IMG/VR virus record: IMGVR_UViG_647533158_000005
Length of the DNA: 44,739 nt
From: a virus
Taxonomy: Duplodnaviria > Heunggongvirae > Uroviricota > Caudoviricetes
Direction: 5' to 3' (one strand)
The position numbers were made by a program, and so were the translations under genes. The notes below the pieces were generated by a model. The model was given only the letters and a program-made list of their open reading frames with translations. It did not search any database and was not told the origin of the DNA. Below, one piece after another: positions 1,422-30,197 of this stretch (its first letter is position 1; each line of letters begins with the position of its first letter).

Positions 1422-3866
1422 TTAAAAATCAGCCTGACTCGGGATCAGTTTTTGCCAGATAGCTGAAACGTATTTTGCCTGGTAACGGGCGTCATCAAGT
1501 GCATTATGGCGCTCACCTTCGAATGGAATAGCCGTTCTGGCATCGAAGTCTATGGCTTTCCCCAGCTCAACAATTGTGCGTACATCGCGATCGTTGTGGT
1601 AGCGCCACGGGCAGGGGATCTCCTGCCGTTCGTATGAACGGCGCAAAATCGTGTTGTCGAAGTTGGCTCCATTTCCCCAGACCTGAACAAAAAATTCATC
1701 GGAGTTTTCGTCGATAAATTCCCGCAATTGTAACAGTGCATCATCTAACGGGATTTCATCGGTCATAATGGCAGATTGCGCTTCGCGTGATTGCTTCAGC
1801 CACCATTTAATGGTGTCCCGATCAATGACTCCGCCAGCAGTTTCCAGATCGATAGTCTTACTAAATTCCGGTCCCATATCTCCGGTTTGCGGATCGAAAA
1901 ATATTGCACCTATTGAGATAATCGCGGCATCAGGATTTTTTCCCATGGTTTCAAGGTCGATCATTAGATGGTCACACGTCCTGCTGGTGGATGTGATTTC
2001 GTGATGACCGTTCACCTTAATTGAGAGAGCTGCCGCCTCGCCAGTTTTATTATCGCTGGCGTGATACTGATCACCACCAGTGTCCTCCTTATGAGGATGG
2101 TCAGTGCCTTTCATTTCCTCCGGATCTTTTTTCTGAGATTCAGCCTGATTTTCTTCATCGAATGTTTCCTGATATGTTGCGTCGCCCATCACCGCGCCAC
2201 AATCAGGGCAGTTGCCGCCACCGCGCTGACCGCAGGCGGTGCAGACTTTTTCCGGTTCCTGTTGCGCTACTGGTTCAAGCAGTTTCGTTTCTGGCTCGTT
2301 TTGTCGCGCATTTGGGCCGTTTTGTTCTGCATTTTGGTCGTTCTGTTCCGTTTCTTGCTGGTTCTGGTTCACAGAATCGCGGGTTTCAATCCCCTTCACC
2401 CATTTCGGATCATTCGGGTCGCTAATCCCTTCAACAAATTCTCCACGAGAAGCAGCCAGTAACTTGTCGGCATCAACAGGATTTTGGGGTGGAATGTTTT
2501 TCCTTGCTTCATGGAGTTCTGCCCGCAGTTTCTGATATTTCGCATCAACAGAATTTATCTGTGGCTGAGCATCCATCGACTGAGTGTCCTGATGATGTTC
2601 AGTTGTATCCGGTTCCACTGCTTCAGGCGTTGCCTGTTCATTTGCCATTGCGCCAGATGGTTGCAGTTTTTCTTCATCATCCTGTTTTCCTTCTTCTGTT
2701 ACACGCTGCGGCATCGGGGCAGAGGAGCGACCGCAGGCAATATCTACGATTTCCGGATCAGGGTTGGCATGATCGGTTTCAGTAAGTACCCTGTTCAGAT
2801 ATTCAGTGACATGTGCAGGGATGACCTCGATACCAATTGGTGCTTCTTTCACGGACGCAACCACGATGGCGCGGGAATAATCCAGCCCACCAGGCATGGC
2901 GATGAATTTGTCGCGGAAAACAGAAAAGGGCGGTTTATTTTCAGCGATAATTTCCTCAATGCGTTTAGCTTGTGCCGGATGAAGGTTATAAATGTCCACG
3001 TCCATTGAACGGGCCAGTACGCCAGTGGCTATGTCGCGCGCCAATGATGCCTGATCGTGGATGAAACCGTCGCCGCGATCGGTAAGGTTCCCGCCTCCAG
3101 CATTAGCACCGGAAGCCGTGCGAGTGATGCGTGAAACACGATTTCCTTTCATCCACTCTTTTGTCAGCAGACCTCGATCGGTGTAGTCAGTGTCCAGGTA
3201 TGCTTCGATGAAAGCGGTCATTATCCCTAGTTCCGAATTTACGGGGACGGGAAAAACACTGTCAGTATCCCGAACCAGTTTGTATAAATCCCGAATTTCC
3301 AGCGGCCCCAGTTGAGCTGCTTTATTTGAGATGGCACGGGTTGTAACCGTAGGGAGTTCTTCATCCAGTGCACTATGCAATGCCCGAAGTTTTTCCCGTG
3401 AAACGTGTGTTACCGGTTTCTCGCTGCCGTGTTGTGCAAGCCAGCGAACGGGCAGTTCCTGACCAGAAATCGGCAGGAGCATACCATCCTCAATCTCTGT
3501 CATATCTTCGCCGTTGACGTTGGTATTGTCAGTGCTGGCTGGTTTGTGCTGCGAAGAGGAAGAGGGCGCGCTAAATATCATTGTGATGCCATCTTCCCCG
3601 CCTTTTTCATATCGATTGCAGAATTCGGTATCAAACACGCCTTCCGGTGGAAGGTCATTCACAACGGGTAAATGGACACGGACGGGTTTTTTAAAGTCGT
3701 CTTCATCATAATCGTTGTCATCCATTGCAGTAATGCAGCGGGAGATAGCAACAGATAATTTTTTTGCTGTAGTCCAGTAAAAACCACCTTTAATTCCCAG
3801 GCGTTTTCTGACTTTGTCATTTTTTGCTTCGCAATATAGTGCAAATTCTTCTTTATCAGTGCTCAT
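1422..3866 (-). CDS. Large phage exonuclease-domain protein (C-terminal DEDD-type 3'-5' exonuclease, central CxxC zinc ribbon)
   Basis: 814-aa ORF; C-terminal ~180 aa contain DEDD-like motifs ([10 protein letters not shown] ... HNALDDARY); CTACGQ...CPDCG zinc-ribbon mid-protein; position matches the exo/recombination slot of lambdoid phages. Confidence 0.6.
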
Positions 3867-18003: not shown

Positions 18004-19944
18004 ATGGCGTTTAAACATTACGATCTGGTTTCTGCCAGTAGCTGTGATGAACTGCAAAAAAAACTGGCAGAAAAAATAAGTGAAGGGTGGCAGCCATATA
18101 GTTCGCCGTTTACTTCGTATGACGATAACGGGATGAAGTTTATTCAGGCTGTTGCCGCAGAAGGTGAAGTCAGGGTTCCTGTTGAAGTTCCTGATGACGG
18201 TGATGGTTCACAGACCACAATTACCTCTGGTGCACCTGACTATTACTACGTGGTGGTACTCGCCGGCCAGTCCAACGGGATGGCCTACGGTGAAGGGCTT
18301 CCGTTACCGGATTCATTTGACCGTCCTGAACCGCGAATTAAACAACTGGCACGCCGCAGCACTGTGACGCCGGGCGGTACGCTGTGTAAATATAACGACC
18401 TTATTCAGGCAGACCACTGCCTGCATCATGTGCAGGACATGAGCGGGATAAACCACCCGAAAGCTGACCTGAGTAAAGGGCAGTATGGCTGTGTCGGTCA
18501 GGGGCTGCATATTGCCAAAAAACTTCTGCCTTATATTCCGCAGAATGCCGGGATACTTCTGGTTCCCTGCTGTCGTGGTGCTTCGGCATTCACCACCGGG
18601 GATGACGGCTCATTCAGTGAGGTCAGCGGTGCTTCCGCTGATTCTTCACGCTGGGGAGCCGGTAAACCCCTGTATCAGGACCTGCTCAGTCGCACCAGAG
18701 CGGCGCTGGCGAAGAACCCGAAAAATAAACTTCTGGCTGTGGTATGGATGCAGGGAGAGGCAGACCTTGCTTCAGGAAGTCAGCAGCATAATGGTTTATT
18801 CACAGCCATGGTTCAGCAGTTCAGAACCGACCTGTCTTCGCTTGCTGCGCAGTGCGTAAGTGGAAATGCTGCCACGGTGCCGTGGATTTGTGGTGATACC
18901 ACGTATTACTGGAAAAACACGTATGCCACGCAGTATGAAACAGTCTATGGCGCATATAAAAATCTGACCGCACAGAATATTTTCTTTGTGCCGTTCCTGA
19001 CGGATGAGAATGGACAGAACACGCCAACGAATGCTCCGGCGGAAGACCCGGATATTGTGGCTGTCGGGTATTACGGTGCGGCATCCCGTACCCAGGGCAG
19101 TTTTGTCTCCACACAGCGTGACAGCCATTTCAGCTCATGGGCACGCAGGGGCATCATTTCTGACCGTCTGGCCTCCGCTATTCTGCTCCATGCAGGGCGC
19201 ACGGCTGAACTGATGGGCGGGCAGGCCGTGACACCACCGGATGAGAAGCCGTCACCTGACACCCCGTCAGCGGACGGGAAATCAATGACAACGCTGCTTT
19301 CTTACCGGGCATCGGAGTCAGGCGGAGCACTGAAGTCACAGGGATGGGCGGCTGCCGGTGGGAGTGCCATTATTGTTGATGATGCCGGTGCCAGCGGGGG
19401 CAAGGCGCTGAAGCTGACAAAACAGACCGGAAAGTCATGGTTTATGCAGCATGATGCCGGTAATGGTGCTGACCTGCTGGAAAAAGGTGGCCTTGTCAGC
19501 TGTCGTTTTAAACTTGATGGCGCGCTTACGGCTAATCAGTACGCACTGGCGCTGTACTGGCCGGTTTCTTCGCTGCCTCAGGGCGTCACACTGGAAGGTA
19601 ATGCCGGTCATAACCTGCTGGCATCGTTTTACGTTCAGAGCGATGCCACAGACCTTAACGTGATGTACCACAAGGGTAATCCGGACCAGAACACGAAGCT
19701 GGGTTCATTCGGTGCATTTAATAACGAGTGGCATACGCTGGCATTCCGTTTTGCCGGTAATAACAGCATTCAGGTGACGCCGGTGATTGATGGTAAGGAC
19801 GGGACACCGTTCATGCTGTCGCAGTCTCCGGTAGGGACACTGGCGGCAGACAAGTTACGCCTGACAGATTTAACCAGTACGGCAACATATCCGGTGCTGA
19901 TTGACAGCATTTTGGTGGAAGTGAATAACCCGTCAGCAGGATAA
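18004..19944 (+). CDS. Prophage sialate O-acetylesterase-like protein (NanS-p family, SGNH/SASA domain)
   Basis: 646-aa ORF with GAGGA Shine-Dalgarno; VVLAGQSNG motif typical of SASA/SGNH esterases; size and position (upstream of lysis genes) match NanS-p of Stx phages. Confidence 0.75.
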   Translation: MAFKHYDLVSASSCDELQKKLAEKISEGWQPYSSPFTSYDDNGMKFIQAVAAEGEVRVPVEVPDDGDGSQTTITSGAPDYYYVVVLAGQSNGMAYGEGLPLPDSFDRPEPRIKQLARRSTVTPGGTLCKYNDLIQADHCLHHVQDMSGINHPKADLSKGQYGCVGQGLHIAKKLLPYIPQNAGILLVPCCRGASAFTTGDDGSFSEVSGASADSSRWGAGKPLYQDLLSRTRAALAKNPKNKLLAVVWMQGEADLASGSQQHNGLFTAMVQQFRTDLSSLAAQCVSGNAATVPWICGDTTYYWKNTYATQYETVYGAYKNLTAQNIFFVPFLTDENGQNTPTNAPAEDPDIVAVGYYGAASRTQGSFVSTQRDSHFSSWARRGIISDRLASAILLHAGRTAELMGGQAVTPPDEKPSPDTPSADGKSMTTLLSYRASESGGALKSQGWAAAGGSAIIVDDAGASGGKALKLTKQTGKSWFMQHDAGNGADLLEKGGLVSCRFKLDGALTANQYALALYWPVSSLPQGVTLEGNAGHNLLASFYVQSDATDLNVMYHKGNPDQNTKLGSFGAFNNEWHTLAFRFAGNNSIQVTPVIDGKDGTPFMLSQSPVGTLAADKLRLTDLTSTATYPVLIDSILVEVNNPSAG

Positions 19945-22645: not shown

Positions 22646-23710
22646 GTTTTGCTGATGCGCCGTATCGTCACCGTATTCCCGCATTAACAGAGACCGCAGC
22701 CATTGCGGGATACTCCTCTGCGTGAGTGTGCGGGGATAATCAAAAACGATACACACCGGGGTTTACCGTGTTAACGGAGCGCGGCGTTGTCCCCTCATGG
22801 TCGCCCGTCCGGTGCGATGGTGGAAGAAACCGGAATGATGAATTGTGAATGCAAAATATGGTTCTGCATTGAATAATACTGGCATTGTTTCCTGTTTACA
22901 TCCAGAACATATTTAAATATGCCTGCCTGGGACAGAGTAAAGTGGCTACGGAAAAAAGGTATGCTACCGGATAAATGTTTTTTGATAACCAGTTTTGTCC
23001 AGATATTGTTTGATCTGTGGTTTATATAAACAGGTCTTTTTTTGGTCTGTACCGTGATCATACTATGGTTATGTGTGGTAAAGCGTATATTCCCTGTAGA
23101 CAGGAAATAAAAACAATGCGAGATATCATTTTTTTTAAGATAGTCAGTGACGGAAATAATATCGCTATTGTGTGATGAAATAAGCAAGGATATAACAGAG
23201 CTAAGCCGGTTGTTCTCTGTGGTGACACAATCTGGAGGCGATAAATCAGAATGCGTGATGTAAAGATTAAGCATGTAAAACCATGGTGTTTAACTGAAGG
23301 TTACTGTGCGGCGGGAAAATAATGAAGTGAAAAGCTAATGTCTATTTGTTATTTTCGCATGATAAAGCAGAGGTATTATTTTTTTGCTAATTTATTCTTT
23401 TGATATGTCTTATCTGTATTTGTGGTTGGTTGTAAACCTCTATTGCAACTGACATCGTCAGCAATGTTGCATACTCATTCAGGTGCAACATGGCGTGGAA
23501 GAAAGAATACAGGTATGAGGATATTTGAGTGGATGATAAAAAAAAGCCGCAGGTGGTATGCGGCATGAAATGGCACGAATCAGTGGATATATCTTTTTTC
23601 GTTTGTATTTTTATCTTATTTCCAGAGGTGTAATCAATTCGAAAAATACGTGAGAACAGAGCGTATATTTTCGACCTTTTTATGGGTCCTCCTGGTGGGG
23701 TCGGCCTGTC

Positions 23711-23735
23711 CACGGGGCGGGTCGGCGCGGAAAAA
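23711..23735. other. Candidate cos site (cosN-like) about 190 bp upstream of terminase small subunit
   Basis: cacggggcgggtcggcgcgg resembles the lambda cosN region (acggggcggcgacctcgcggg); spacing to the terminase small-subunit start matches lambda cosN to Nu1. Confidence 0.4.
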
Positions 23736-23917
23736 GGCGCATTTTTGTGATTTTATCGTCATCATCATCATGTGTGTAACTTATTGTTTTTAATTGTTTT
23801 AATGCAAAAAAGATGATGGATGTGGTTGATTTTTGTTCGACATCTTTGTGGGGCGGTATTTCTTTACAAAAAAAACAGAGTCACTTCTGTTTTGCGGGTT
23901 ACGTGGAGGACGTGTAA

Positions 23918-24394
23918 ATGGACGGCGAGCTGAAAAATATGAAGTTAAATATTAATCAACTGGCATCCCTTTCAGGCCTGCACCGGCAGACTGTTACCGC
24001 AAGAATGGCAGATGTTCCTCTTGCACCAGGCAGCAATGAGAAGAAAAAACTTTATTTCCTGACGGATTTGATTACCTCGCTGCTGGAAAAAACACCATCC
24101 ACCGAAGATGAGGAGATGAATCCACACGATCGCAAGGCATGGTATCAGTCCGAGCGCGAGCGTCTTAAATTTCAGCATGAAACTGTTCAGCTTGTGCCCG
24201 TCAGTGATGTCAGGCGGTCGTTTTCCGTCGTGGTGAAAGCGATAGTTCAGATACTGGAAACATGGCCTGACAGGCTGGAAAGGGACAGGGGGTGGACTGC
24301 ATCACAACTGAACGAAGTGCAGATCGTTGTTGATGAGATCCGTGACACGCTGGAAAAGGCAGTGATTGCCTGCTGTGATGAGGCTGATATGTGA
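23918..24394 (+). CDS. Terminase small subunit (Nu1-like, HTH)
   Basis: 158-aa ORF with GGAGGA Shine-Dalgarno; N-terminal HTH-like segment (LNINQLASLSGLHRQTV); stop overlaps start of terminase large subunit. Confidence 0.75.
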   Translation: MDGELKNMKLNINQLASLSGLHRQTVTARMADVPLAPGSNEKKKLYFLTDLITSLLEKTPSTEDEEMNPHDRKAWYQSERERLKFQHETVQLVPVSDVRRSFSVVVKAIVQILETWPDRLERDRGWTASQLNEVQIVVDEIRDTLEKAVIACCDEADM

Positions 24395-26514: not shown

Positions 26515-26723
26515 GTATTGATGATGTCAGGAACATGATACAGAGGTACCGCGATGCGGAAATGGCGGTACTGGAGGGAAAATCTGTCACGTTTAACGGG
26601 CAGCAACTGACGCTGGAAAGTCTGTCCCAGATCCGCGCCGGTCGTCAGGAGTGGGAGCGAAGACTTACGGCGATGGTGAACCGCAGACGGGGGAGTCCGG
26701 GGTTTAAACTGGCGAGGTTCTGA
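26511..26723 (+). CDS. Head-tail joining protein W-like
   Basis: GTG start after AGGAGG; C-terminus ...RRRGSPGF resembles lambda gpW C-terminus; sits between terminase and portal. Confidence 0.6.
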   Translation: MSIDDVRNMIQRYRDAEMAVLEGKSVTFNGQQLTLESLSQIRAGRQEWERRLTAMVNRRRGSPGFKLARF

Positions 26724-28228
26724 TGGCAATTAGTGATGATGTGATTGGTTTTTTCTCGCCTGGCTGGAAGGCAGCGCGATTACGCTCAAGGGCGTTAATT
26801 ATGGCCTATGAGGCCGTGAAACCCACCAGGACGCATAAAGCCAGGCGGGAAAACCGTTCTGCCGATCAGCTCAGTAAATACGGTGCGGTTTCCCTGCGCG
26901 AGCAGGCCCGCTTTCTGGATATCAATCATGACCTGGTGATAGGCGTGTTTGACAAGCTGGAGGAGCGGGTGATTGGTGCGAAGGGGATCACCGTTGAGCC
27001 TCATCCGGTGATGAAAAACGGGGAGATTGCGGCGGAGCTGGCAGCGGATATCCGACGGCTGTGGGCGGAATGGTCTGTCAGTCCGGATGTGACCGGACAG
27101 TACACCCGCCCCATGCTGGAGCGTCTGTTGCTGCGTACCTGGTTGCGTGACGGGGAAGTGTTTGCGCAGATGGTCAGTGGTGCGGCAAACGGTCTTAAGC
27201 GGTCTGCCGGTGTGCCTTTCTGGCTTGATGCGATGGAGCCGGATTTTGTACCCATGCGCAGTGATGAGTCTGCCGGACTGAATCAGGGCGTTTTTCTGGA
27301 TGAGTGGGGCAGGCCGAAAAAATATCTGGTTTACAAAAGTTATCCGGTTTCCGGGATACAGAGTGATACCAAAGAGATCGCCGCAGACAAAATGGTCCAT
27401 CTGAAATTCACCCGCCGCCTGCACCAGACGCGTGGTGCGTCCATGTTGTCCGGTGTGATGGTGCGTATCAGTGCGCTTAAGGAATATGAAGATGCCGAAC
27501 TGACAGCGGCGCGTATTGCTGCGGCACTGGGGCTGTATATCCGTAAGGGTGACGGACAGGATTACGACGAACAGGGGGCAGACAAAAAAGAAGAGCGGGA
27601 AGTGCATATCACTCCGGGCATTATCTATGACGATTTGCGCAAGGGTGAGGATATCGGCATGGTCAAATCCGACCGTCCTAATCCCAATCTTGAAAATTTT
27701 CGTAACGGTCAGCTGCGTGCGGTGGCGGCAGGCAGTCGTCTGAGCTTTTCCAGTACCGCACGCAACTACAACGGCACCTACAGTTCACAGCGGCAGGAGC
27801 TGGTCGAGTCCACCGACGGTTACCTTATCCTGCAGGACTGCTTTATTGGCGCGGTAACCCGCCCGGTGTACCGTGCATGGCTGAATATGGTGGTTGCTGC
27901 CGGTCTGCTGAAAATCCCGTCTTGCCTGGATATGAAGACGTTATATAACGCGACATATTCCGGTCCGGTGATGCCGTGGATAGATCCGGTTAAGGAGGCT
28001 GAAGCCTGGCGGATACAGATCCGGGGTGGTGCCGCGACGGAATCAGACTGGGTACGTGCCGGTGGACGTCATCCGGATGAGGTTAAACGTCGCCGCAAGG
28101 CTGAAACTGAGGAAAACCGCAGACTGGGGCTGGTCTATGATACTGACCCCGTCAACGACAAAGGAGGCAACAGTGCCGGAACTGAACAACAGCGTCAGCA
28201 GGCCACCGACAGCCAGCATGAAGAATAA
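26723..28228 (+). CDS. Portal protein
   Basis: 501-aa ORF directly after terminase/W, before the protease-capsid gene; size and order typical of a lambdoid portal. Confidence 0.8.
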   Translation: MAISDDVIGFFSPGWKAARLRSRALIMAYEAVKPTRTHKARRENRSADQLSKYGAVSLREQARFLDINHDLVIGVFDKLEERVIGAKGITVEPHPVMKNGEIAAELAADIRRLWAEWSVSPDVTGQYTRPMLERLLLRTWLRDGEVFAQMVSGAANGLKRSAGVPFWLDAMEPDFVPMRSDESAGLNQGVFLDEWGRPKKYLVYKSYPVSGIQSDTKEIAADKMVHLKFTRRLHQTRGASMLSGVMVRISALKEYEDAELTAARIAAALGLYIRKGDGQDYDEQGADKKEEREVHITPGIIYDDLRKGEDIGMVKSDRPNPNLENFRNGQLRAVAAGSRLSFSSTARNYNGTYSSQRQELVESTDGYLILQDCFIGAVTRPVYRAWLNMVVAAGLLKIPSCLDMKTLYNATYSGPVMPWIDPVKEAEAWRIQIRGGAATESDWVRAGGRHPDEVKRRRKAETEENRRLGLVYDTDPVNDKGGNSAGTEQQRQQATDSQHEE

Positions 28229-30197
28229 ATCCTGGTTCAGGATGCAGGCGGGTGGTCAGGGTGAGGCGGATATTTATATTTATGACGAGATTGGTTTCTG
28301 GGGAGTTACCGCGAAGCAGTTTGTCTGCGATCTGAATGCTCTGGGTGATATCACCCACATTAATCTCCATATCAACTCACCGGGTGGCGATGTCTTTGAA
28401 GGCATCGCCATTTTTAATGCCCTGAAAAATCAGGGGGCGACCATTACCGTGTATGTGGATGGCGTTGCCGCATCGATGGCATCCGTGATTGCGATGGCCG
28501 GTGATACGGTCATTATGCCGGAAAATGCTTTCATGATGATCCATAAGCCATGGGGCTTCAGTGAGGGGGATGCTGAGGATATGCGCAGTTATGCCGATCT
28601 GCTGGATAAAATCGAATCGGTACTGTTGCCAGCCTATGCGCAAAAAACAGGAAAAACCACCGATGAAATTGCCGCCATGCTGGCGGATGAGACCTGGATG
28701 TCAGGTGCCGAGTGTCTGGCACACGGATTTGCTGACCAGGTGACGCCAGCCGTTAAGGCAATGGCATGTATTCAGTCAAAACGTACAGAGGAATTTAAAA
28801 AGATGCCGGAATCCATCCGAAACATGATTACTCCGCCACGCAACAGTGCCCCGCGTGATACCACAGTGACAATCCCTGCACCGGCGGTAACAGAACCATC
28901 ACCGGTACCGGCAGTGTCTGATGAGGAGACCATTCGCGCTGGTGTCCTGGCTGAGCAGAAAGCCCGCATGTCAGGCATTAACGATCTGTTTGCCATGTTT
29001 GGCGGTCGCTATCAGACGCTTCAGGCACAGTGCGTGGCCGATCCTGACTGTTCGCTGGAAATGGCCCGTGAACGTCTGCTGAATGAAATGGGTAAGGAAT
29101 CCTCACCGACTAACAAAACGGCACCGGCTCATATTTATGCCGGAAACGGTAATTTTGTTGGAGACGGGATCCGCAAGGCGCTGATGGCCCGCGCCGGATT
29201 TGAGACTACGGAGAAGGATAATGCCTATAACGGTATGACCCTGCGTGAATGCGCCCGCATGTCACTGACGGAACGGGGGATCGGGGTGGCCAGTTATAAC
29301 CCTATGCAGATGGTGGGGCTGGCGCTGACGCACAGTACCTCGGATTTTGGCAATATTCTACTGGATGTGTCGAATAAGGGGCTGATCCAGGGCTGGGAGG
29401 AATCAGAAGAAACCTTCCAGAAATGGACCCGCAAAGGTCGCCTGTCTGACTTCAAAACGGCATACCGTGTGGGGATGGGGGGATTTGGCTCTCTGCGTCA
29501 GGTGCGGGAAGGGGCGGAGTACAAATACATCACCACCTCTGACCGTAAGGAGACCATTGCACTGGCGACCTACGGGGAAATTTTCTCCATCACCCGTCAG
29601 GCCATTATCAATGATGACCTGAATATGCTGGTGGATGTGCCGATGAAGATGGGGCGTGCCGCGAAAGCGACGATTGGTGACCTGGTCTACAAGGTGTTAA
29701 CGGATAACCCGAAACTGTCAGACGGTAAGGCGCTGTTCCATGCCGATCACAAGAATATTGCCACGGGCGGGATCTCCGTTTCGGGGCTGGATGCGGCACG
29801 TCAGATGATGCGTCTGCAGAAAGAGGGCGATCGTGCGCTGAATATCCGTCCGGCCTTTATGCTGGTGCCGGTGGCACTGGAGACAGTGGCAAACCAGACC
29901 ATCAAATCGGCCAGTGTGAAAGGGGCGGATGCAAACGCCGGTGTCATTAACCCCATCCAGAACTTTGCTGAAGTGATTGCAGAAGCGCGTCTCGATGCGG
30001 CAGATCCGAAAACCTGGTATCTGGCTGCGGCACAGGGGACCGACACCATTGAAGTGGCCTGGCTGGATGGTGTGGACACGCCCTACATTGACCAGCAGGA
30101 GGGTTTCACCACTGACGGTATCGCCACAAAAATCCGTATCGATGCCGGTGTGGCACCGCTTGACTGGCGTGGGCTGGTGCGTTCAGCCGCTGCCTGA
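28218..30197 (+). CDS. Prohead protease (ClpP/S49-like) fused to major capsid protein
   Basis: ATG at 28218; N-terminal ClpP-like region (...HINSPGGDV...VAASMASVIAMAGD...MIHKPWG), Ala/Pro-rich linker, C-terminal major-capsid-like domain; fusion architecture as in 933W-type head modules. Confidence 0.8.
   Translation: MKNKSWFRMQAGGQGEADIYIYDEIGFWGVTAKQFVCDLNALGDITHINLHINSPGGDVFEGIAIFNALKNQGATITVYVDGVAASMASVIAMAGDTVIMPENAFMMIHKPWGFSEGDAEDMRSYADLLDKIESVLLPAYAQKTGKTTDEIAAMLADETWMSGAECLAHGFADQVTPAVKAMACIQSKRTEEFKKMPESIRNMITPPRNSAPRDTTVTIPAPAVTEPSPVPAVSDEETIRAGVLAEQKARMSGINDLFAMFGGRYQTLQAQCVADPDCSLEMARERLLNEMGKESSPTNKTAPAHIYAGNGNFVGDGIRKALMARAGFETTEKDNAYNGMTLRECARMSLTERGIGVASYNPMQMVGLALTHSTSDFGNILLDVSNKGLIQGWEESEETFQKWTRKGRLSDFKTAYRVGMGGFGSLRQVREGAEYKYITTSDRKETIALATYGEIFSITRQAIINDDLNMLVDVPMKMGRAAKATIGDLVYKVLTDNPKLSDGKALFHADHKNIATGGISVSGLDAARQMMRLQKEGDRALNIRPAFMLVPVALETVANQTIKSASVKGADANAGVINPIQNFAEVIAEARLDAADPKTWYLAAAQGTDTIEVAWLDGVDTPYIDQQEGFTTDGIATKIRIDAGVAPLDWRGLVRSAAA

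Follow-up and report, generated by a model that had tools for sequence, protein, structure and literature searches.

Where does DNA packaging begin in this prophage, and are its mature ends cohesive? The question is raised by a G+C-rich motif, ggggcgggtcggcgcgg (positions 23714-23730), in the stretch of 44,739 nucleotides that was analysed here and is called the window (IMG/VR record IMGVR_UViG_647533158_000005). A preliminary description had placed a cos-like site at 23711-23735, upstream of the gene for the small terminase (terS). This is borne out by blocks resembling cosQ, cosN and cosB that align with those of related phages, and we are highly confident that positions 23684-23845 are the cohesive-end site (cos) of a lambdoid prophage with packaging of the VT1-Sakai / Gifsy / mEp213 type. 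The site is an unannotated member of a known, already described kind, which is expected beside a gpA-type terminase. Its annotation shows where packaging of the prophage starts, in which direction it runs and where the mature genome ends lie, and corrects an assignment of the head genes to the 933W type. Lambdoid prophages with a DUF1441-type terminase are very common in E. coli and include Stx1/Stx2 converting phages. Since Stx phages are among the carriers of this cos, knowing it helps to predict which prophages and satellites can be co-packaged.

Location and composition of the site

The motif lies in a non-coding, A+T-rich interval that extends from a DUF1398 gene (22795-23274, minus strand) to the start of a 158-aa ORF at 23918. 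The G+C fraction peaks at 0.68 (60 bp) at the motif and is 0.27-0.45 in the flanking DNA. Holin, endolysin and Rz genes are found upstream and head genes on the other side, as in lambda, and the window looks like a complete lambdoid prophage with its cos between the lysis and head modules. The ATG of terS is located 187 bp past the end of the motif, at position 204 from the predicted left end (23715), compared with position 191 for the start of Nu1 from the end of lambda. The earlier figure of about 190 bp was hence roughly right.

The motif had also been likened to the cosN region of lambda. This likeness is weak in the 12-mer itself, as the motif agrees with the lambda cohesive end GGGCGGCGACCT at 6/12 positions, through GGGCGG alone. 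A search of the window for the lambda 12-mer with at most three mismatches gave 39 matches where 36.5 were expected, and the motif was not among them. With a match count equal to chance, likeness of the 12-mer alone was rejected as evidence for a cos. The likeness does exceed chance in an extended signature, GGGTCCT followed after 18-28 nucleotides by ACGGGGCGG, which has a single copy in the window and none in 100 shuffles. A reading of the motif as a transcription signal was rejected as well, on the counter-evidence of a promoter and terminator scan that gave no terminator or convincing promoter there.

Subsites of the cos and their conservation

Phages for a block-wise comparison were chosen only by the similarity of their TerS protein, among them VT1-Sakai, CP-1639, Fels-1, mEp460, LLS, cdtI, Kp4865-4 and PSTCR8, and lambda was added. 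The entire 240-bp stretch of the window is homologous to the cos regions of these relatives. The TerS-selected phages share cosQ, a G-rich spacer of 22-24 nt ending in CACG, GGGCGG and CGCGG on either side of a variable segment, an A-tract and a T-tract, a repeat with a CAT/CAC triplet, an A+T block centred on TTGAT/TTGTT, an inverted copy of the repeat, a third and direct copy, and then terS, in this order. Every subsite is present in the window with conserved order and spacing (Table 1). In this comparison with known cos sites, for which the preliminary description had called, every block aligned with the TerS-selected phages, and cosQ and cosN aligned with lambda as well. Loci from IMG/VR were retrieved by their cosQ/cosN pattern, which makes conservation of those two blocks there circular; their conservation is therefore judged among the TerS-selected phages only.

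Table 1. Features of the cos region and adjacent genes in the window, and cos copies at four other IMG/VR loci. Mature positions are counted from bp 1 = 23715; slashes mark predicted nicks.
Feature	Coordinates	Strand	Mature bp	Sequence	Remarks
cosQ	23684-23690	+		GGGTCCT	packaging-termination signal; identical to the lambda 7-mer; upstream of bp 1
cosQ-cosN spacer	23691-23712	+		CCTGGTGGGGTCGGCCTGTCCA	aligns with CCYGGYGGGGTGGCCTGCCA of DUF1441-type phages
cosN	23713-23727	.	-2 to 13	CG/GGGCGGGTCGG/CG	CG dinucleotides flank both predicted nicks
I2-like A/T-tract	23731-23754	+	17-40	AAAAAGGCGCATTTTTGTGATTTT	A5...T5...T4
R3-like repeat	23756-23771	+	42-57	TCGTCATCATCATCAT	predicted small-terminase binding
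I1-like IHF core	23777-23789	-	63-75	AAACAATAAGTTA	putative; 1 mismatch to WATCAANNNNTTR
R2-like repeat	23810-23825	-	96-111	AAGATGATGGATGTGG (top strand)	inverted relative to R3
R1-like repeat	23834-23845	+	120-131	TGTTCGACATCT	direct, orientation as R3
Shine-Dalgarno	23905-23909	+	191-195	GGAGG	8 nt before the terS ATG
Small terminase (TerS), DUF1441, 158 aa	23918-24394	+			PF07278, E 3e-48
Large terminase (TerL), gpA family, 707 aa	24391-26514	+			PF05876, E 1.6e-80; PF20454, E 2.6e-84
Portal, lambda family	26723-28228				Pfam
ClpP-protease/capsid fusion	28026-30197				Pfam
cos of locus L054	~10865-10910	+
cos of locus L063	5667-5712	-
cos of locus L078	2955-3000	+
cos of locus L086	6150-6196	-

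In phage records (megablast and blastn), similarity to VT1-Sakai and several Stx2 prophages runs from about 23677 into terS, while a shorter core, from 23684 to about 23800, is kept in Fels-1, mEp460, mEp213, mEp043, PhiR40_1, CP-1639 and 1720a-02. The closest relatives are VT1-Sakai (Sp15), Stx2_95, CP-1639 and 1720a-02, with 87-90% DNA identity from 23677. They resemble the window in their R3/I1/R2/R1 blocks and in their TerS and TerL (94-96% identity). The stretch from cos to terS was matched in 1739 of 5426 complete E. coli genomes.

In lambda, GGGTCCT is cosQ and ACG/GGGCGG.../CGCGG is cosN (PMC4669245). The lambda cosQ begins 30 nt before the right end and that of the window 31 nt before the predicted nick. 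The same 7-mer is found in the TerS-selected phages VT1-Sakai, CP-1639, mEp460, PhiR40_1, LLS, cdtI and Kp4865-4, and AGGTACT takes its place in Fels-1, PSTCR8, Gifsy-2 and Chris1. The left half ACG/GGGCGG and the downstream CGCGG are common to the window, lambda, LLS, cdtI, Fels-1 and mEp460. At 23713-23727, GGGCGG is accompanied by CG at both nicks; such CG flanks are highly conserved in lambda-like cosN (PMC4669245), a rule that also appears in PMC9303873. The likeness to lambda continues with A/T tracts after cosN and with three repeats, of which the middle one is inverted and the first is followed by an IHF-like site, giving the order cosQ-cosN-I2-cosB[R3-I1-R2-R1] with terS about 200 bp from the end. 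In contrast to lambda, the right half of cosN has an unrelated sequence and is 1 bp shorter, and the repeats are TCGwCATC-like where those of lambda are CGTTTCC-like.

The A/T-tract at 23731-23754 is in a position equivalent to that of I2 of lambda (bp 18-50, A/T tracts; PMC4856287). It is kept across the TerS family as GGAAAAAGGC..TTTTT, and likely serves as a static bend between cosN and cosB. The R3-like repeat lines up with R3 of lambda and N15 (bp 48-65; PMC9026076), and aligns with GTCATCATCATCAT of LLS, Kp4865-4 and Fels-1. Likewise, the R2-like repeat aligns with AAGATGATGA (Fels-1), GATGTCGA (LLS) and GGTGACAG (PSTCR8). An inverted-repeat pair (23763-23776 and 23805-23818) covers the R3/R2 region, and the R1 pattern TG.TC..CA is kept in at least 85% of 60 aligned cos regions. 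The IHF-like core lies between R3 and R2, in the lambda order, its TTGAT/TTGTT core is kept in relatives, and GTAACTTATTGTTTTTAATTG of the window resembles ATAACTTAATGTTTTTATTTA of the lambda I1 region. Matches to the IHF consensus in the whole window were not above chance (28 found, 34.5 expected), and it is by position and conservation that 23777-23789 can reasonably be read as a candidate I1-like IHF site. R3, an inverted R2, R1 and an IHF site between R3 and R2, which together make up a cosB, can all be recognised in the sequence as predicted binding sites, and the suggestion that the A+T-rich interval could hold cosB and IHF sites was well founded.

In the aligned cos regions, R3, R2 and R1 change together between phages. 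The repeats of PSTCR8 read CTGTCAGC, CTGTCACC (inverted) and CTGTCACC, with CTGTCA(C/G)C three times in the orientations + - +, and those of mEp460 read GTCATCACCAC, CGACACC (inverted) and GTTCGCCAC. Such concerted change would be expected if TerS recognises the repeats as specificity determinants.

Ends of related phages

The deposited sequences of two relatives begin at the base homologous to the predicted left end. The LLS record (PQ299149) starts at the homologous G and carries the misc_feature '5' extended single-strand cohesive site GGGCGGCGCGCT' (12 nt), and the cdtI record (AB285204) starts at the homologous G and has ...CCTGCCACG as its final bases. The same 5'-GGGCGGCGCGCT is given as the putative cos of mEp213 and LLS (Vahanian et al. 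2017, as cited in PMC12315714). The 12-nt 5' overhang of LLS was inferred from this putative mEp213 cos (Vahanian 2017; Feiss, personal communication), and the ends of LLS and mEp213 are described as inferred or putative (PMC12315714). Feiss and co-workers count Gifsy-1 as a phage with lambda-like 12-base 5' ends (PMC4669245, PMC4856287), and the putative cos of lambdoid prophages of O157 Sakai were aligned with lambda in 2009 (PMC2669165).

The cos regions of mEp213, LLS, cdtI, mEp460 and Fels-1 can be aligned with that of the window base by base from cosQ to R1. These phages share its TerS family (49-57% identity) and a Gifsy-2-like head type, but their CG flanks are 12 bp apart and their cosQ starts 29 nt before the nick, as compared to 11 and 31 in the window. 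In LLS, terS starts already at bp 130, because the interval from R1 to the ATG is short.

These alignments also bear on the idea that the motif is a G+C-rich patch due to chance, or coding sequence of a small ORF (23650-23793, plus strand; 23634-23771 or 23387-23713, minus strand), and plays no role in packaging. The 6/12 match to the lambda 12-mer, with partial matches as frequent as chance, would agree with it, and several GenBank records annotate a 'hypothetical protein' over the homologous stretch. However, the composite signature has just one copy in the window and none in the shuffles, and the block-wise conservation tolerates indels that would break a reading frame (cosN of 10, 11 or 12 bp). 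Moreover, homology to relatives begins inside the 108-aa ORF, and the LLS and cdtI records start exactly here. We consider such a chance or coding origin highly improbable.

Two further sources were set aside. The record of the evolved phage mEp460_4F5 (LR595868.1) begins 5 nt to the left of where the nick is predicted (CCACG GGGCGG...), and its cosN, GGGCGGGAGCGCGG, is 3 bp short of the GGGCGGGAGCGGCGCGG found in the parental mEp460 (JQ182728.1). The short cosN is probably an assembly effect at cohesive ends and not a true deletion, and the start of this record was not taken as a mapping of the end. The 3' cos CGCCCCCCCT in a paper on Stx phages (PMC7946995) belongs to a different phage and is irrelevant to the window.

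Terminase and head genes

The large terminase (TerL) encoded next to terS contains PF05876 and PF20454, both at full length, which places it in the gpA family; it is 96% identical to H0024 of VT1-Sakai. Large terminases of the gpA family make 5' cohesive ends. By analogy, TerL is expected to be the enzyme that nicks cosN.

Packaging sites adjoin terS in pac phages too, and the site might accordingly be a pac-type initiation site for headful packaging. Nothing specific favours this, and several observations argue against it. TerL carries both gpA domains, cosQ is kept at a fixed distance although a termination signal would be unneeded in headful packaging, and relatives have been deposited or described with defined cohesive ends (the LLS record; PMC9303873; PMC4669245 for Gifsy-1). 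We therefore regard headful initiation as most unlikely. Cohesive-end packaging, as proposed earlier, is supported by the cos and the gpA-family TerL, with the cutting itself predicted from these.

That proposal had been worded as cohesive-end packaging despite head genes of the 933W type, and this clause does not hold. Similarity to the terminase, portal and capsid proteins (gp50-54) of the 933W or Traversvirus type was sought by comparing five proteins of the window with the late region of 933W (positions 25000-61670) by tblastn, and no match was obtained (all E > 0.6). In addition, none of the 58 phage records with a DUF1441 TerS is that of 933W. In contrast, the packaging and head proteins (TerS, TerL, portal and protease-capsid) are 94-96% identical to those of VT1-Sakai. 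The head genes are of the VT1-Sakai / Gifsy-2 / mEp213 type, not of the 933W type, so that head type and packaging mode are not at odds. Phages of the LLS/mEp213 type have Gifsy-2-like heads with a fused protease-capsid protein (PMC12315714). The window shares a gpA-family TerL and a lambda-family portal with lambda, but has the ClpP protease-capsid fusion where lambda has C/Nu3/D/E. With its called start (GTG, 28026), the fusion ORF runs over the final 200 bp of the portal gene. Since the Pfam ClpP match begins at residue 98, the true start is probably located further downstream.

The small terminase gene had been called Nu1-like. This does not apply at the level of families, because BLASTP of TerS against lambda Nu1 was not significant (E 0.28) and Pfam assigned TerS to PF07278 (DUF1441) only, with no match to PF07471 (Phage_Nu1), the family of the lambda protein. 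A remote or fold relationship is plausible, however. Profile comparison with hhalign of 44 DUF1441 and 34 Nu1-type sequences, drawn from loci downstream of cos sites, gave a probability of 47% and an E of 2e-4, and the alignment was colinear over 125 columns from the N-terminal helix-turn-helix onwards. An AlphaFold model of TerS (32 homologues, mean pLDDT 79) predicts a winged helix-turn-helix (H-H-wing-H) at residues 12-57, followed by three long helices; residues M1, D2, E4 and L5 are invariant in the 32 homologues. Three of the four top Foldseek matches of this model were 7lw0, 6hn7 and 1j9i, solved entries of lambda-type TerS / Nu1 DNA-binding domains, with non-significant E values of 0.08-0.23, and MerR-family regulators came next. 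Searched against PDB sequences with phmmer, TerS had no match beyond a meaningless one (E 1.4).

Length of cosN and the predicted overhang

The number of base pairs between the conserved CG flanks is 11 in the window and VT1-Sakai, 10 in Stx2_95, CP-1639 and 1720a-02, and 12 in lambda, LLS, mEp213, cdtI, PhiR40_1, mEp460, Fels-1 and PSTCR8. Within the group of closest relatives, the right half of cosN reads GTCGG in the window, GCGGG in VT1-Sakai and GCGG in Stx2_95 and CP-1639, and 31 nt separate the start of cosQ from the nick throughout. A pattern scan of IMG/VR yielded 128 sites, in which cosN measured 12, 11 and 10 bp in 117, 4 and 7 cases, respectively. The short forms (11/128) are confined to one lineage, and occur only with a TerS that is 73-97% identical to that of the window and with the 31-nt distance from cosQ start to nick, which is 29-30 nt in most other sites.

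The distance from cosQ to CGCGG hardly varies. Whatever the length of cosN, it stayed within 40-43 bp at each of the 128 sites, and at 123 sites it was 41-42 bp. The 42 bp from cosQ to the right flank are made up of 30 + 12 in lambda, 31 + 11 in the window and 33 + 9 in cyanophage Cr-LKS3. This constancy fits the published requirement of cosQ for nicking of the bottom strand (Cue and Feiss 1998, as cited in PMC4856287).

Because the spacing from cosQ to the right flank stays at 42 bp while the CG flanks are 11 bp apart, the overhang of the window is most likely 11 nt of 5' extension, GGGCGGGTCGG, with predicted nicks at 23714/23715 in the top strand and opposite 23725/23726 in the bottom strand. 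An alternative is a fixed 12-bp stagger, giving GGGCGGGTCGGC or GGGGCGGGTCGG, one form being a 12-nt overhang that ends at 23726. A point against the assignment is that, with a stagger of either 11 or 12 nt, twofold symmetry in cosN is nearly confined to the CG flanks. In lambda cosN, 10 of 16 bp are symmetric.

A precedent within the DUF1441 TerS family for an overhang below 12 nt is Cr-LKS3, for which PMC9303873 reports 5' ends of 9 nt, GGGCTCGCG, as determined, matching the CG flanks. Cr-LKS3 resembles the window in its DUF1441-type TerS (35% identity), its CG/GGGC.../CGCGG flanks and its cosQ-like GGGTCCC, but differs in its distant host, its genome of 66% G+C and its spacing of 9 instead of 11 nt. 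In its sequence (OM373202.1), GGGTCCC is located 33 nt before the right end; the accessible main text of PMC9303873 does not mention a cosQ.

By analogy with lambda, packaging of the prophage would proceed as follows. Dimers of the DUF1441 TerS would bind R3, R2 and R1 through their N-terminal winged helix-turn-helix, the I1-like site, flanked by R3 and the inverted R2, would be bent by IHF, and the A/T-tract segment would contribute a static bend, by which the gpA-type TerL would be placed on cosN. TerL would then nick the top strand after CACG and the bottom strand to the left of CGCGG. The predicted product is the 5' overhang described above, and packaging would run rightwards, with terS entering first.

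We tentatively extend this reading to the whole VT1-Sakai / CP-1639 lineage, a proposal to which we give slightly less than an even chance. The cohesive ends of this lineage, including the window, would measure 10-11 nt and not the canonical 12, with the left nick after CACG/GGGCGG and the right nick 41-42 bp from cosQ, its distances to cosQ and to cosB both being fixed. Satellite-like elements that carry the short-cosN cos but no terS would parasitise these phages. If this is true, the overhang length of gpA-type enzymes is set by two independently positioned half-sites, and not by a rigid 12-bp ruler of the TerL dimer. The natural variation of cosN between 10, 11 and 12 bp at constant cosQ distance bears on how terminase places its two nicks.

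Satellite-like elements and the activity of the site

Five IMG/VR loci (L054, L063, L078, L086 and L105) carry a cos of the window lineage without terS within 1.2 kb. Each has a complete cosQ, a cosN of 10 or 11 bp and R3/I1/R2/R1 of the window type, followed by small ORFs of 68-93 aa. A D5_N/Pox_D5 primase-helicase adjoins the cos in L063 and L086, and L063 also encodes a P4-type integrase. The five loci look like phage satellites that carry the entire cos of a helper, including cosB. That such elements keep a cos with a short cosN argues that the variant is functional.

Two loci each contain three cosQ-cosN matches within about 12 kb. Those of L041 (67-112, 8202-8247 and 10738-10783) are all on the plus strand. 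The three matches in L063 are of different types (2333-2380, plus; 3226-3272, minus; and the one listed in Table 1), and a Nu1-family gene and a capsid gene of the lambda-E type lie beside one of them. These multi-cos loci may be clusters of prophage remnants or satellites.

The site could also be a cos by descent that has lost its function, in a decaying prophage that is no longer cut here. A cosN shortened in its right half, to 11 bp instead of 12, and a recombination junction just upstream of cosQ would then be marks of decay. It agrees with this that spacings of 10-11 bp are limited to a single lineage, that homology to relatives breaks at about 23677, and that the closest named relative, Sp15 (VT1-Sakai), is impaired in morphogenesis (PMC2669165), so that members of the lineage can be defective. 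Yet Sp15 DNA is packaged in O157 Sakai (PMC2669165), and in the window TerS, TerL, portal and capsid fusion are intact, full-length ORFs and every cos subsite is intact. Furthermore, the recurrence of the short variants in many distinct prophages and in satellite-like elements points to selection for function. The spacing of cosQ and CGCGG is kept at 41-42 bp, and the 9-nt overhang of Cr-LKS3 comes from a phage of the same TerS family. We consider loss of function unlikely, and the prophage to which the cos belongs may still be active.

Upstream DNA and other features of the window

Two adjacent tRNA genes were called in the region 16329-16484, a tRNA-Met and one with the four-base anticodon 'tttt', within a late region that has the layout seen in Stx phages. 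Between these calls and a 646-aa ORF at 18004-19944 there is no ORF of at least 130 aa (16485-18003), and therefore no stx genes are apparent there.

A terminator-like hairpin, GCCGCATACCACCTGCGGC followed by T8, is located between the DUF1398 gene and cosQ (23546-23564, minus strand), with no ORF identified that it would end. The similarity to VT1-Sakai and Stx2 phage records starts abruptly at 23677, some 7 bp before cosQ. To the left of this junction, 400 bp (23275-23676) are A+T-rich and non-coding, and do not contain the inverted repeat TGATAAC-CATTATCA that is present ahead of cosQ in many phages, among them lambda, VT1-Sakai and CP-1639. In phage records the DNA upstream of cosQ in the VT1-Sakai group is unrelated to that of the window, and the chromosomes of the mouse E. 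coli M1 and M3 match it across the junction at 96%.
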